Source of the DNA: Bacteroidota bacterium
GTDB taxonomy: Bacteria; Bacteroidota; Bacteroidia; Bacteroidales; Paludibacteraceae
Length of the DNA: 31,443 nucleotides
Direction: 5' to 3'
Assembly (NCBI GenBank): GCA_030706455.1
Contig: JAUZOL010000021.1
Location: 1 to 31,443, forward strand
Made by a program: the position numbers and the translations under genes. Below the pieces are notes generated by a model. It worked only from the letters and a program-made list of their open reading frames with translations, was not told the DNA's origin and searched no databases. Numbering within the stretch: the first letter of the stretch is position 1; every line of letters begins with the position of its first letter. Of this stretch, positions 8,690 through 15,461 are shown piece after piece.

Positions 8690-8711
8690 TTGTTCGTAAT
8701 TTTGCGAACAA
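8690..8711. promoter_or_regulatory. Inverted repeat TTGTTCG-N8-CGAACAA (putative ArsR operator). Its 8-nt spacer is a TAATTTTG -7 promoter box.
   Basis: Arms are TTGTTCG (8690-8696) and CGAACAA (8705-8711). The spacer taattttg (8697-8704) matches TAnnTTTG and lies 31 nt upstream of the arsR ATG at 8735. CGAACA is repeated again at 8712-8717. Confidence 0.55.
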
Positions 8712-8734
8712 CGAACATTCAAAATAATTATGCT

Positions 8735-9067
8735 ATGAATTGCTGCGAAAAACAAGATTATACGATAGATAATGAACAACTTGCACGCTTTGCTAAAGCG
8801 ATGGGGCATCCGTCACGCATTGCCATCCTTAGCTTTTTAGCCAACCTCGATAGTTGCTATTTTGGCGATATCAACAACGAACTGCCGATTGCCAAGGCTA
8901 CCGTTTCTCAACATCTGAAAGAGTTGAAAGAGTCCGGACTCATTACCGGAACCATTGAGGCACCCAAGGTGAAATATTGTATCCATCGGGAGAACTGGGC
9001 AAAAGCGCAGGCTTATTTCAACACCTTCTTTGCTTCATTAAAAGAAAAAGATCTTTGTTGTGACTGA
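8735..9067 (+). CDS. arsR: ArsR/SmtB family metalloregulator (110 aa)
   Basis: The track ORF 8690..9067 starts at a non-ATG codon inside the promoter. The ATG at 8735 gives MNCCEKQDYT...HPSRIAILSFLANLDSCYFGDINNELPIAKATVSQHLKELKESGLITG...KEKDLCCD, a winged HTH of ArsR type with vicinal Cys pairs at both termini. Confidence 0.9.
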   Translation: MNCCEKQDYTIDNEQLARFAKAMGHPSRIAILSFLANLDSCYFGDINNELPIAKATVSQHLKELKESGLITGTIEAPKVKYCIHRENWAKAQAYFNTFFASLKEKDLCCD

Positions 9068-9073
9068 TTTATA

Positions 9074-9129
9074 ACTCCGTCCTTTAGGGCGGAGTAGACA
9101 GTAATTTGCTGTGAGAGGGCTTTAGCCCT
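9074..9129 (+). other. Two GC-stem/TTTA-loop hairpins in the arsR-trx spacer
   Basis: ACTCCGTCC ttta GGGCGGAGT (9074-9095, one G-T pair) and AGGGC ttta GCCCT (9116-9129). There is no T-run after either, so they are not classical terminators. Confidence 0.5.
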
Positions 9130-9197
9130 GAATGATGGAACTATGAACATGTCTTTTCTGTTTGTTTAACCGATAATATCTATAAAATAGTAAGCTA

Positions 9198-9446
9198 ATG
9201 AAAATTCAGGTATTGGGTACGGGATGTGCCAAATGTAAATCGCTTGAAAAGGCGGTGCGCGAAGTGGTGGCTCAAAATGGCATCGATGCCGAGGTGACCA
9301 AAGTGGAGGATATCATGGAAATCATGAAATTCAATGTGCTGACAACTCCTGCGCTGGTTGTCGACGGAAAAGTAGTGGTAAAAGGGCGGGTGCCGTCCAA
9401 CGATGAACTAAAGCAGATATTAACCAACAAAATATTTCTGATATGA
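9198..9446 (+). CDS. Small thioredoxin-fold protein (redox-active disulfide protein, TM0996/MTH895-like; 82 aa)
   Basis: MKIQVLGTGCAKCKSLEKAV has an N-terminal CxxC. Size and sequence are typical of the glutaredoxin-like proteins found next to ArsP-type permeases. Confidence 0.85.
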   Translation: MKIQVLGTGCAKCKSLEKAVREVVAQNGIDAEVTKVEDIMEIMKFNVLTTPALVVDGKVVVKGRVPSNDELKQILTNKIFLI

Positions 9447-9871
9447 AACGAATATTCTTATTTTCATTGATTTTGCTTTTAGCAGCCTCTTTTGCCGGGA
9501 GTCAAACCGTAAAAAAGGCAGTATCAACCCCGACACCAGCCGTTAAGCAGGCTAAAGTTGAGGTTTATTACTTTCATTTTACCCGTCGCTGTGTTACTTG
9601 CCAGGCTGTCGAAACCGAATCGCAAAAAGCCGTTTCAGCCCTTTATCCGGCTCAATCGAAGCATGGAGTCATTACTTTCAAATCGCTTAATCTGGATGAT
9701 AAAACCAGTAAGGCGATGGCAACGCGCTGTAAAGCAGAAGGGCAGGCATTGCTCGTTATCAGTGGAAATAAACGCTTCGATTTGACCGATCAGGGCTTTA
9801 TGTATGCCCGAAACAATCCGGACAAACTGAAGGCAGAGCTCAAAAAAATCATCGATCCACTTATTCGTTAA
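9443..9871 (+). CDS. Secreted thioredoxin-like CxxC protein (resembles the family annotated as ArsF)
   Basis: The start overlaps the trx stop (ATGA at 9443-9446). Signal peptide MKRIFLFSLILLLAASFAGSQ, then YYFHFTRRCVTCQAVE (CxxC). The family name is from memory of database annotation and is unverified here. Confidence 0.65.
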   Translation: MKRIFLFSLILLLAASFAGSQTVKKAVSTPTPAVKQAKVEVYYFHFTRRCVTCQAVETESQKAVSALYPAQSKHGVITFKSLNLDDKTSKAMATRCKAEGQALLVISGNKRFDLTDQGFMYARNNPDKLKAELKKIIDPLIR

Positions 9872-9877
9872 AGCACT

Positions 9878-13102: not shown

Positions 13103-13402
13103 ATGAAGACGTTACAATATTTGAAGAACGTGGTTACCCTGAAACTGAATCCCGATTTATGCACAGGGTGTGGTATGTGTACCATGGTGTGCCCTCACGC
13201 GGTCTTTGAGGTGGTAAATGGCAAAGCCCGCATTATTGATATCGACGATTGCATGGAGTGCGGAGCCTGCGCGAACAACTGCCGATTTGGTGCAATTAGT
13301 GTCAAAGCCGGGGTAGGGTGTGCCGCGGGAATCCTGAACGGAATCTTGCGAGGCACCGAGCCGTCGTGCGATTGTTCTACCGGATCTAAAGCTTGTTGTT
13401 GA
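13103..13402 (+). CDS. hgcB: HgcB, 2x[4Fe-4S] ferredoxin partner of HgcA (99 aa)
   Basis: The ATG at 13103 is 1 nt after the hgcA stop; the track start 13058 is an upstream extension overlapping hgcA. Sequence: MKTLQYLKNV..CTGCGMCTMVCP...CMECGACANNC..GVGCAAG...SCDCSTGSKACC. It has two ferredoxin CxxCxxCxxxC motifs and a C-terminal vicinal Cys pair, as expected for HgcB. Confidence 0.85.
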   Translation: MKTLQYLKNVVTLKLNPDLCTGCGMCTMVCPHAVFEVVNGKARIIDIDDCMECGACANNCRFGAISVKAGVGCAAGILNGILRGTEPSCDCSTGSKACC

Positions 13403-13415
13403 AAATAAAACGATT

Positions 13416-13853
13416 ATGGAAACATTAAAAATACGTATAGCAACCGCAGAGGATCAGGCTCAAATAAAAGCCTTACTGGAGGCGAGTCAATTGCCGGGTA
13501 GCGATATAGACCTGGGCAAACAATTTTTTCTGGTTGCGCTGCACGATCAGGTTGTGATCGGAACGATTGCGCTTGAAGTGTACGACAATAGCGCGTTGCT
13601 GCGCTCTTTCGCTGTGGATGCACATTTCCGGAGTCAGCAAATTGGTGCGCGTCTTTATCGGGAGGCTGTGGCTCAATCCAGACAAAAGGGAATCGGTCAT
13701 CTTTTTCTGCTGACCACCACTGCCGATAGATATTTCGATCGGTTGGGCTGGCAACGTATCGGGCGCGATGAGGTGCCCGATGCAATTGGCGCTACCACCG
13801 AGTTTGCGTCGCTCTGTCCACTCTCTTCCATTGTAATGAAATTTGATATTTAA
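13416..13853 (+). CDS. arsN2: GNAT N-acetyltransferase of the ArsN2 type
   Basis: 145 aa. The GNAT core is [24 protein letters not shown]. The C-terminal block [22 protein letters not shown] is typical of ars-operon ArsN2 proteins as I recall them. Confidence 0.75.
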
Positions 13854-13858
13854 CCGTT

Positions 13859-14890
13859 ATGAATACACGACTTAAATTTCTCGATCGTTACCTGACGCTC
13901 TGGATTTTTCTTGCCATGTTTATCGGAGTCTTCTCCGGCTGGTATTTTCCCGGAGTGGCTGCATTCTGGAACTCCTTTTCGTCAGGCACTACCAATCTTC
14001 CCATCGCCATCGGATTGATTGTGATGATGTATCCGCCTTTGGCTAAGGTGAAATACGAAGAGCTGGGCGACGTATTCAAAAACACAAAGATATTGGGCTT
14101 GTCGATGGTGCAGAACTGGATTATTGGGCCGGTGCTGATGTTTTTGCTGGCTATTATTTTCCTCCGGTTCAACATCAGTTACATGTACGGACTGATACTG
14201 ATCGGGTTGGCACGTTGCATTGCCATGGTCATTGTGTGGAACGATCTGGCAAAGGGCGACCGGCAATATGCGGCCGGACTGGTGGCTTTCAATTCGCTTT
14301 TTCAGGTGTTGCTCTTTTCGGTCTATGCCTACGTGTTCATTGCCATCCTGCCTGGTTGGTTCGGACTGCCGGTGAACGAAACGGTGGCGCAAATTACGAT
14401 GGCTGCCATTGCCAAAAGTGTCTTTGTATACCTGGGCATCCCCATGATTGCCGGCTTTCTGACACGGTTTATTCTTACCCGTCTTAAAGGTTCGCAGTGG
14501 TACGACACCCGCTTTGTCCCCAAAATATCGCCACTCACGCTGATTGCACTGCTGTTTACCATTGTGGTGATGTTCTCACTCAAAGGAGAATACATTGTGA
14601 AAATTCCGTTGGACGTAGTGCGTATTGCTATTCCGCTGGTGATCTATTTTGTCGTGATGTTCTTCTTTTCGTTCGTAATGAGCAAAAAGGTGGGGGCAAC
14701 TTACGAACAGTCTGTTACCCTTTCATTTACGGCCGCGAGCAATAATTTTGAGTTGGCCATCGCCGTAGCCATTGCTATTTTCGGCATCAATTCCGGTGAA
14801 GCTTTTACCGCCGTAATCGGACCACTGGTTGAGGTGCCGGTAATGATATCCCTGGTGAACGTTGCTTTTTGGTTCCGTAAACGATTTTAA
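13859..14890 (+). CDS. acr3: ACR3-family arsenite efflux transporter
   Basis: [24 protein letters not shown]...[14 protein letters not shown]...[19 protein letters not shown]..., the ACR3 signature including the conserved Cys in RCIAMV. 343 aa, about 10 TM. Confidence 0.93.
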
Positions 14891-14898
14891 TACTATAC

Positions 14899-14924
14899 CC
14901 TAAAGGTTCTTGAAACCTTTAAGG
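14899..14924 (+). terminator. Hairpin just after the acr3 stop (weak terminator or attenuator candidate)
   Basis: TAAAGGTT (14901-14908) cttga AACCTTTA (14914-14921), extended by CC/GG with one bulged A. No downstream T-run. It occupies the only sizeable gap (70 nt) in the ars operon. Confidence 0.35.
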
Positions 14925-14960
14925 TTTGATACGATCCCTGATACGATAAATTTATAGAAA

Positions 14961-15461
14961 ATGGAATTAATTACTATCCAATCTCTTACTGCAGCACATT
15001 GGCCCGATGCGGCGCGTATTTACGAAGCCGGTATTGCCACCGGTAACGCTACGTTTCAAACCGAAGCTCCGTCGTGGGAAGCCTGGGATAAGGCTCACCG
15101 TCCGGATTGTCGTTTGGTGGCTCTCTGCGAAGGAAAAGTAGCCGGATGGGCTGCTCTTTCGTCCGTTTCGGCCCGACCGGTGTATGCCGGTGTGGCGGAG
15201 GTAAGCATCTATGTTGATCCCGCTTTTCGGGGACAAGGTGTGGGCGACAGTTTAATGAAAGCGCTTATCAAAGAGTCGGAAGCGCGGGGAGTCTGGACGC
15301 TGCAATCGGGTGTGTTTCCCGAAAATGCTGCCAGCATGCGGTTGCACCAAAAATACGATTTTCGTACCATCGGCATCAAAGAGAAGATTGGCAAAATGAA
15401 TTCTGTGTGGCGTGATGTGGCGATGCTGGAACGGCGCAGTCGTGTGGCGGGGATTGATTAA
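14961..15461 (+). CDS. arsN1: GNAT N-acetyltransferase of the phosphinothricin/arsinothricin acetyltransferase (PAT/ArsN1) type
   Basis: 166 aa: HWPDAARIYEAGIATGNATFQTEAPSWEAWDKAH...AGVAEVSIYVDPAFRGQGVG..L...GVWTLQSGVFPENAASMRLHQKYDFR..G. Typical PAT-family blocks. Confidence 0.8.
   Translation: MELITIQSLTAAHWPDAARIYEAGIATGNATFQTEAPSWEAWDKAHRPDCRLVALCEGKVAGWAALSSVSARPVYAGVAEVSIYVDPAFRGQGVGDSLMKALIKESEARGVWTLQSGVFPENAASMRLHQKYDFRTIGIKEKIGKMNSVWRDVAMLERRSRVAGID

Follow-up and report, generated by a model that had tools for sequence, protein, structure and literature searches.

hgcAB as a probable accessory cargo in a variable slot of an ArsR-controlled arsenic operon of a Paludibacteraceae-like Bacteroidales bacterium

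Introduction

The native function of HgcAB and the control of its expression are long-standing questions in mercury biogeochemistry. In Pseudodesulfovibrio mercurii ND132, an ArsR-like regulator controls hgcAB, and both As(III) and As(V) elicit a transcriptional response (Gionfriddo et al. 2022 bioRxiv 10.1101/2022.10.17.512643 / AEM 2023). The regulatory gene, arsR2, is located upstream of hgcAB and is co-transcribed with it (Gionfriddo et al., 2022/23; Goni-Urriza et al., 2020). Deletion of hgcAB in this strain increased the sensitivity to As(V), not that to As(III), and methylarsenicals were not detected in its cultures; the arsenic hypothesis for hgcAB was already framed and tested in that study, which also lists Bacteroidetes, including Paludibacter jiangxiensis, among the genomes with ArsR beside hgcAB (Gionfriddo et al., 2022/23). 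Here, we describe a stretch of 31,443 nucleotides (nt) of contig JAUZOL010000021.1 (assembly GCA_030706455.1), from a Bacteroidota bacterium of the Paludibacteraceae. This stretch, called the window, offers a clean example of hgcAB inside an arsenic resistance (ars) operon, in a lineage of fermentative Bacteroidales. All genes of the operon are on the + strand.

The window and ND132 share an ArsR-family gene upstream of hgcAB. However, in ND132 no other ars gene lies beside hgcAB, whereas in the window hgcA and hgcB are the seventh and eighth genes of a full ars operon. Also, ArsR2 of ND132 has a four-cysteine site and responds to S-adenosylhomocysteine as well, whereas the regulator in the window is of the Bacteroidales ArsR type, as indicated by alignment with the ArsRs of related loci. 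Closer to the window are loci in diverse metagenome-assembled genomes (MAGs), in which hgcAB is flanked by acr3 and arsC (McDaniel et al., 2020, mSystems, PMC7438021, Fig. 6), and neighborhoods with arsR, acr3, and arsC, which go along with lower transcript ratios of hgcA (Peterson et al., 2025, PMC11984097, Fig. 4c). Both papers propose that mercury methylation is linked to arsenic resistance. These loci have the ArsR-family regulator, the arsC upstream and the acr3 downstream of hgcAB in common with the window, but the operon in the window is larger (11 genes), having arsEFG, arsP, arsN2, and an arsN1-like gene in addition. In the original prediction, which was made from the letters of the window, the embedding of hgcAB between arsC and acr3 was considered tighter than any reported linkage. 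This does not hold, since the same flanks were already present in PMC7438021 and the same neighborhoods in PMC11984097. The locus is a well-formed example of a published kind of hgcAB-ars locus, and the linkage is neither unique nor new. The stop/start overlap, the operator and the alternation with arsM that are described below do not appear in the available portions of the text of these two papers.

A Variable Slot Between arsC and acr3

In the Paludibacteraceae-like Bacteroidales bacterium of the window, hgcAB is probably an accessory cargo in a variable slot between arsC and acr3 of an ArsR-repressed ars operon. A metagenome scan anchored on ArsC yielded 80 loci with an ArsC 79–93% identical to that of the window, 74 of which were informative. 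Nine of these operons contain hgcAB, 27 contain arsM, 38 contain neither, and none contains both. hgcAB is located directly after arsC in eight of the nine operons and upstream of arsC in the ninth, and arsM is mostly found directly after arsC, too. In the 38 operons without cargo, arsC runs straight into acr3. The probability of finding no co-occurrence is 0.012, or 0.021 after de-duplication, when phylogeny is ignored. A second set, obtained by scanning species-representative genomes for HgcA and mapping the neighbors by tblastn, comprised 48 loci. ArsM was found in none of 46 hgcA-anchored loci, and a pooled Fisher test of arsM against hgcAB, in which kinship is ignored, gave p = 1.5e-5. 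In all these comparisons, and in the window, the presence of arsM was judged at the locus only, not genome-wide. The query was the ArsM of locus L069 (~266 aa), which scores 335.8 bits against NF008823 (cutoff 263).

As had been predicted, arsM is absent from the window: tblastn with the L069 protein gave no match, no class-I methyltransferase motif was found in any real gene of the window, and Pfam scans of the other large open reading frames (ORFs) were likewise negative. Three genes at related loci were considered as arsM candidates and rejected. The methyltransferase beside hgcAB in L033 belongs to UbiE/MenG, that of L006, with 189 aa, reaches 38 bits (ArsM cutoff, 263), and a ProC-like gene between arsP and arsC (in L001, L002, L013, L014, and L049) encodes a pyrroline-5-carboxylate-reductase-like protein.

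The modular presence and absence of hgcAB was observed directly. In a neighbor-joining tree of arsC, drawn without support values, the hgcAB, arsM and empty states are interspersed, and a comparison of L082, which has hgcAB, with L107, in which the slot is empty, revealed a clean indel of 1374 bp between arsC and acr3 flanks that are ~90% identical. The slot also accommodates unrelated cargos, i.e., a membrane protein of the PRK09272 family, a four-helix-bundle protein, a C_GCAxxG_C_C protein, and GshAB. No paper describing the alternation of arsM and hgcAB was found in the literature searched, and the hgcAB/arsM/empty polymorphism of the slot is a new result of this study.

Two further features of the slot were seen. 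Several loci (L005, L006, L017, L081, L082, L090, L091, L094, and L099) contain two or three tandem paralogs of arsC of the low-molecular-weight protein tyrosine phosphatase (LMW-PTP) type, and in these loci the slot adjoins only the copy that is ~84% identical to the ArsC of the window, the other copies being 35–44% identical. In L010 (1883-4231) and L076, GshAB, a bifunctional glutamate-cysteine ligase/glutathione synthetase (924 bits), is encoded between hgcB and acr3, thus placing thiol synthesis in one operon with hgcAB.

The Bacteroidales operons with the order arsR-arsC-arsM-acr3 (L051, L069, L084, and others) resemble that of the window in their arsR and acr3 flanks, in their orthologous arsC (79–89% identity) and in the gene after arsC, which usually starts at an ATGA overlap. 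They differ in the content of the slot: an ArsM of ~266 aa that depends on S-adenosylmethionine (SAM) vs. the corrinoid protein and ferredoxin of HgcAB, which are not homologous to it. In the window, the overlap between the TGA stop codon of arsC and the ATG start codon of hgcA at 12070-12073 was confirmed by reading the sequence, and the same −4 junction is present in the HgcA-anchored loci L001-L004, L020, and L023. In the ArsC-anchored operons, an ATGA overlap follows arsC in 4/8 cases where the next gene is hgcA, in 15/25 where it is arsM, and in 13/27 where it is acr3. Thus, the overlap on which the idea of translational coupling was founded is real, but any coupling belongs to the 3′ junction of arsC and would be a generic trait of that junction rather than one specific for hgcA.

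One way to read the alternation is that HgcAB methylates arsenic as a corrinoid-dependent module, in place of the SAM-dependent ArsM. The As(III) produced by ArsC would be methylated and leave the cell via ArsP or Acr3, and mercury methylation would be a side reaction. We consider this unlikely. The reading is strengthened by the slot alternation, since arsM and hgcAB alternate in one position behind arsC, frequently with the same ATGA overlap, exclude each other in both sets of loci, and are interspersed with the empty state on the arsC tree; the presence of ArsP and absence of arsM in the window and the higher As(V) sensitivity of the ND132 mutant are also in its favor. It is weakened by the speciation data of ND132, as neither mono- nor dimethylarsenicals were detectable in the cultures, by the sporadic presence of ArsP, which is encoded beside only about a third of the hgcAB loci, and by a possible structural cause of the exclusion: if cargos are exchanged by homologous recombination of the conserved flanks, arsC and acr3, each operon would retain a single cargo whatever its function. 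Furthermore, the ND132 mutant was not more sensitive to As(III), surveys mention arsM near hgcAB in some other lineages, and the exclusion is measured with statistics that ignore phylogeny, a tree without support values and an arsM status that is known at the locus only. In a wider form, hgcAB and arsM would be functionally interchangeable arsC-acr3 cargos in Bacteroidales, HgcAB being selected for the transfer of methyl groups, dependent on a corrinoid and independent of SAM, to arsenic or some other metalloid that ArsR senses. This, too, is doubtful; if it is true, the environmental methylmercury from these bacteria is an arsenic-induced side reaction. The occurrence of hgcAB, arsM and empty slots as near-isogenic natural variants makes the hypothesis of HgcAB as an arsenic methylase directly testable; should it fail, these variants would instead speak for the view of hgcAB as a passenger, which is considered in the next section.

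hgcAB and ars Genes in Other Genomes

Within the HgcA-anchored set, 26 loci are from Bacteroidota, and in 23 of these hgcAB directly adjoins an ars gene, most commonly in the core arsR-arsC-hgcA-hgcB-acr3. The arrangement in the window is, hence, widespread rather than unique to this genome. An identical order of the 11 genes, with HgcA 87–90% identical, is found in L001-L004 and L049. The closest relatives of the window, uncultured Microbacter/Paludibacter MAGs with an HgcA in this range of identity, share this order and the −4 overlap between arsC and hgcA. The synteny also survives rearrangement, as the order of the genes is shuffled in L007, L011, L015, L019, and L025 with hgcAB still within the ars cluster. 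Outside the Bacteroidota, the linkage was found in one Ruminiclostridium, one Actinomycetota, and two Spirochaetota loci.

Other members of the operon are less faithful. ArsP was proposed to handle the product of HgcAB, but its link to hgcAB is not conserved: it is present in ~10–11 of the 26 Bacteroidota loci and is equally sporadic beside genuine arsM. As an obligatory partner of hgcAB it was rejected, since it is missing from the well-sampled loci L012, L016, L017, L018, and L021. The linkage of arsEFG, arsN1, and arsN2 to hgcAB is inconsistent among relatives as well.

In their GC content and GC content at third codon positions (GC3), hgcAB equal arsC and acr3, and no compositional sign of a recent insertion of hgcAB was found. 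The dN/dS ratios amount to 0.08–0.10 for hgcA and 0.04–0.06 for hgcB; hgcAB is under purifying selection, as are its ars neighbors. The distances between HgcA proteins correlate with those between the ArsC proteins (r = 0.69).

These data bear on the view that hgcAB is a passenger, i.e., that an often-exchanged ars island has a hot spot of recombination at the arsC-acr3 junction, that hgcAB is spread along with this island, and that HgcAB performs no arsenic chemistry, any benefit being related to mercury or another co-occurring substrate. This is possible, though we do not favor it. The unrelated cargos of the slot, its empty state in 38 of the 74 operons, the clean indel, the loss of hgcAB in L046 (see below), and the abundance of elements resembling miniature inverted-repeat transposable elements (MITEs) in the intergenic spacers of relatives would all be explained. 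Against it stand the retention of hgcAB in ars clusters despite rearranged gene order, in several phyla and in distant HgcA clades, the strong purifying selection, and the arsenic-responsive regulation and As(V) phenotype in ND132, even though no other ars gene adjoins hgcAB there. We infer that HgcAB contributes to arsenic handling. These readings of its role are compatible with the co-transcription discussed below.

Two loci in the comparison have an unusual history. In L004, Acr3 (11991-13013) is 66% identical to that of the window, vs. 96–97% in the other relatives, and the rest of the operon is 87–98% identical, which suggests allelic replacement of acr3 alone. L006 is from a MAG labeled Peptostreptococcaceae, and its arsC, hgcAB, acr3, and flanks are 78–91% identical at the nucleotide level to Bacteroidales-type loci, e.g., L107; the contig has probably been mis-binned or recently transferred.

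A Probable ArsR-Controlled Transcript

The order of the genes in the window, established from the ORF list and direct reads of every junction, is arsR-arsE-arsF-arsG-arsP-arsC-hgcA-hgcB-arsN2-acr3-arsN1. Between 9198 and 14890, the successive spacings are −4, 6, 15, 33, −4, 1, 13, and 5 nt. Two spacers are wider, those between arsR and arsE (130 nt) and between acr3 and the last gene, which encodes a GNAT acetyltransferase (70 nt). The unit is closed by a convergent acyltransferase gene on the minus strand (15482-16654). With respect to the coordinates, the gap sizes and the order of the 11 genes, the original prediction was correct throughout.

Upstream of arsR, a candidate promoter/operator is located on the + strand at 8682-8723, in the form of a nested palindrome around a −7 box of the Bacteroidetes type. 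The box, TAATTTTG, at 8697-8704 matches TAnnTTTG and is enclosed by the palindrome, the arms of which (TTTGAATATT...AACATTCAAA and TTGTTCGTAA/TTGCGAACAA) were detected as repeats I4 and I5 in an inverted-repeat scan. The block TGTTCGTAATTTTGCGAACAACGAACA is identical in five genomes, i.e., in the window and in L001-L004, with diverged flanking sequences, as might be expected where an ArsR operator overlaps a promoter. The most likely start of arsR is the ATG at 8735, so that 8690-8734 would represent promoter, operator and leader. The predicted promoter-like box at the 5′ end was supported by a conserved candidate promoter/operator, and the segment 8690-8734 is most likely not coding.

Given this architecture, the ars-hgc genes probably form one ArsR-repressed, arsenic-inducible transcript, with translation of hgcA coupled to the termination of arsC. 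Transcription would start at the −7 box inside the operator palindrome and read through arsEFG, arsP, arsC, hgcA, hgcB, arsN2, acr3, and probably arsN1, and hgcA translation would be coupled to that of arsC via the ATGA overlap. Presumably, As(III) or an organoarsenical in trivalent form would serve as the inducer. Co-transcription is suggested by the gaps of ≤33 nt, the overlaps and the lack of promoter and terminator signals, and arsenic inducibility, like co-transcription, by the architecture and by analogy with the experiments in ND132. The proposed placement of hgcAB on an arsenic-responsive transcript fits these features. In such an arrangement, HgcAB, and any mercury methylation by it, would be made only when an inducer of ArsR is present. 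The architecture, thus, predicts arsenic-gated formation of methylmercury, which is relevant to co-contaminated paddy soils, aquifers and sediments.

Alternatively, hgcAB could be expressed apart from the arsR promoter, via an unrecognized promoter inside arsP or arsC, in which case the tight spacing would reflect genome compaction only. This is very unlikely. Within arsP, the + strand has matches to TAnnTTTG at 10750 and 11095, but none was found in the 975 nt between 11095 and the start of hgcA, and the 42 matches in the window are only modestly above the 28 expected by chance. The ATGA overlap leaves no space for a dedicated 5′ untranslated region, and in the simpler loci L016, L024, and L025 arsR immediately precedes either arsC-hgcAB or hgcAB. 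Neither a signal for an internal promoter nor one for a terminator was detected in the sequence before hgcA. Scans of 8400-15800 for sigma-70 promoters (4 observed vs. 10.8 expected) and for intrinsic terminators (10 vs. 9.7) gave counts at or below chance, and both models are uninformative for Bacteroidetes. The Rfam scan of the whole window gave no match, so that it contains no cobalamin riboswitch or other known RNA, and a tRNA scan found no tRNA.

Several points weigh against an arsenic-gated hgcAB cargo as proposed here. TAnnTTTG defines Bacteroidetes promoters loosely and predicts them poorly, which leaves room for an internal promoter. The spacer between arsR and arsE (9068-9197, + strand) is structured: it contains three hairpins without a U tract, and its RNA fold has a free energy of −38.7 kcal/mol (z = −3.2). 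It measures 130 nt vs. 18 nt in relatives, and it could attenuate read-through, terminating some of the transcripts, or hide an unconventional promoter. As of 2020, mercury methylation by any member of the Bacteroidales was without experimental confirmation. Finally, 65 of the 74 operons with an orthologous arsC lack hgcAB, and in L046 hgcA is truncated, and hgcB and arsN2 are deleted. HgcAB is, thus, dispensable for basic arsenic resistance.

The truncated locus, from an uncultured Microbacter MAG (L046:2312-2806), retains arsG-arsP-arsC and a fragment of hgcA, namely its initial ~330 nt up to and including the cap helix, followed by ~170 nt of unrelated sequence and acr3-arsN1. A palindrome at the junction (CCCCTCTCTCTCGGGAGAGGGG...) resembles an element that L001 and L004 have between hgcB and arsN2. 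Either a genuine deletion or an artifact of co-assembly may account for the truncation. The arsR-arsE spacer of the window contains a fragment of a MITE-like palindromic element, which is present in a single copy in the window. Such elements occupy different spacers of the operon in different relatives (9068-9135 in the window, L002:11359-11510, L001:11331-11534, and L004:11331-11545), and the copy in the window and the insertion between hgcB and arsN2 of L002 have the terminal repeat AACTCCGTCCTTnAGGGCGGAGT and the internal sequence GGGCTTTAGCCCTGAAT in common.

The Genes of the Operon

Gene families were assigned by comparing NCBIfam/TIGRFAM bit scores with the curated cutoffs and by Pfam, and the gene identities and junctions were observed directly. 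hgcA (12070-13101, + strand) scores 407.7 bits against NF040863 (cutoff 275), and the match covers the full length of the model (residues 19-342 on positions 1-324 of 325). The cap-helix motif with the cobalt-ligating cysteine, GINVWCAAGK, is present, and this motif is kept in 50 of 53 HgcA matches across the loci. By family, HgcA of the window is a mercury-methylation corrinoid protein, and methylation of Hg(II) in vivo is predicted. Its corrinoid-binding cytoplasmic domain (residues ~35-169) is homologous to the large subunit of CFeSP, the corrinoid iron-sulfur protein (PDB 2h9a, 4c1n, 4djd; E = 1e-10). Unlike CFeSP of the Wood-Ljungdahl pathway, HgcA has a cap helix with Cys (NVWCAAGK) and, at the C terminus, a membrane domain, and its partner is HgcB instead of the CFeSP small subunit. 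A PDB sequence search with HgcA returned CFeSP subunits only, the gamma subunit being the nearest, and no HgcA structure. Look-ups of the exact HgcA and Acr3 sequences of the window yielded no record. In L007 (10001-11020) and L008 (8866-9888), the cap helix reads NVWCSAAK instead of NVWCAAGK; hgcA is preceded there by a gene for a 353-aa signal-peptide protein without family match, and arsC is located after hgcB.

hgcB (13103-13402, + strand; NF040864, 122.4 bits, cutoff 99) encodes a 2x[4Fe-4S] ferredoxin with the motifs CTGCGMCTMVC and CMECGACANNC, an internal Cys in GVGCAAG and a terminal ACC...CC. All hallmarks of the family are present, including the position right after hgcA with a gap of 1 nt.

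The other genes are all on the + strand as well. arsR (8735-9067; NF033788, 58.3 bits, cutoff 55; Pfam HTH_5) encodes a member of the ArsR/SmtB family with cysteines C3, C4, C41, C81, C108, and C109 and is, as had been noticed, the sole ArsR-type regulator in the window. arsC (11651-12073) encodes a thioredoxin-coupled arsenate reductase of the LMW-PTP type (Pfam LMWPc). Its score of 129.4 bits against TIGR02691 falls short of the equivalog cutoff of 174.3, but the catalytic pattern is kept, i.e., C7-X5-R13 in the P-loop, C79 and C86, and the predicted identity stands with this reservation. The arsenite efflux permease Acr3 is encoded at 13859-14890 (TIGR00832, 450.5 bits, cutoff 282.8). With an arsenate reductase (ArsC), an arsenite efflux pump (Acr3), and a 5′ ArsR/SmtB regulator with a palindromic candidate operator over its promoter, the unit has the makeup of an ars operon.

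Genes for resistance to organoarsenicals have been characterized elsewhere, i.e., arsEFG in Shewanella, arsP in Campylobacter, and arsN in Pseudomonas and Burkholderia. In the window, a complete arsEFG set is present, whereas only an ArsF-like protein had been recognized. It consists of genes for a thioredoxin-like protein of the MTH895/ArsE family (9198-9446; TIGR00412, 122.9 bits, cutoff 62), for a member of the ArsF family, a family of nitrophenyl-compound nitroreductase subunits (9443-9871; NF040494, 102.2 bits, cutoff 60), which overlaps arsE by 4 nt, and for an ArsG-family permease with a DsbD_2/CcdA-like fold (9878-10582; NF040495, 310.2 bits, cutoff 200; Pfam DsbD_2). The ArsP and ArsN2 assignments were upheld. 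The arsP-type permease gene (10598-11617; Pfam ArsP_1, 237.7 bits) encodes the permease fold and the vicinal cysteine motif of ArsP, in the form of TPFCSCS, and transport of trivalent methylarsenicals is putative; its product reached no NCBIfam equivalog and gave weak, sub-cutoff matches to SaoE and SO_0444 only. ArsN2, a GNAT acetyltransferase, is encoded at 13416-13853 (NF040501, 143.6 bits, cutoff 125). The ArsN1 call has to be softened: the product of the last gene (14961-15461), resembling phosphinothricin/arsinothricin acetyltransferases, scores 127.3 bits against NF040503, below the cutoff of 170, and is best named an ArsN1-like or phosphinothricin acetyltransferase-like GNAT. An arsN1-like gene is also the final gene in L001-L004, L046, and L049. 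The ArsE- and ArsF-family proteins, ArsG and ArsN2 score above their cutoffs, and their substrate specificities are putative.

A gene for a pyrroline-5-carboxylate-reductase-like NAD(P) oxidoreductase of ~260 aa recurs in related ars operons, usually between arsP and arsC, and is absent from the window. It was found in L001 (8784-9569), L002 (8783-9613), L013, L014, L007 (12781-13641), L020 (3918-4694), and L049.

Flanking Regions

An efflux system is located on either side of the ars-hgc operon, at 2276-7977 and at 19006-24336, and the neighborhood is thus rich in export and resistance functions. The two sets consist of an RND system (MFP, an AcrB-like pump and a NodT-type outer membrane factor) and an AraC-regulated OEP/HlyD/MFS-like system. 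PADLOC and NCBIfam searches with the unannotated ORFs of 649, 532, and 213 aa yielded nothing useful, and the 649-aa ORF (16801-18750, minus strand) did not match any Pfam family either. This ORF, which lies directly downstream of the ars-hgc unit, probably represents foreign DNA; its GC content is very low, at 0.31 with a GC3 of 0.28 (window, 0.44).

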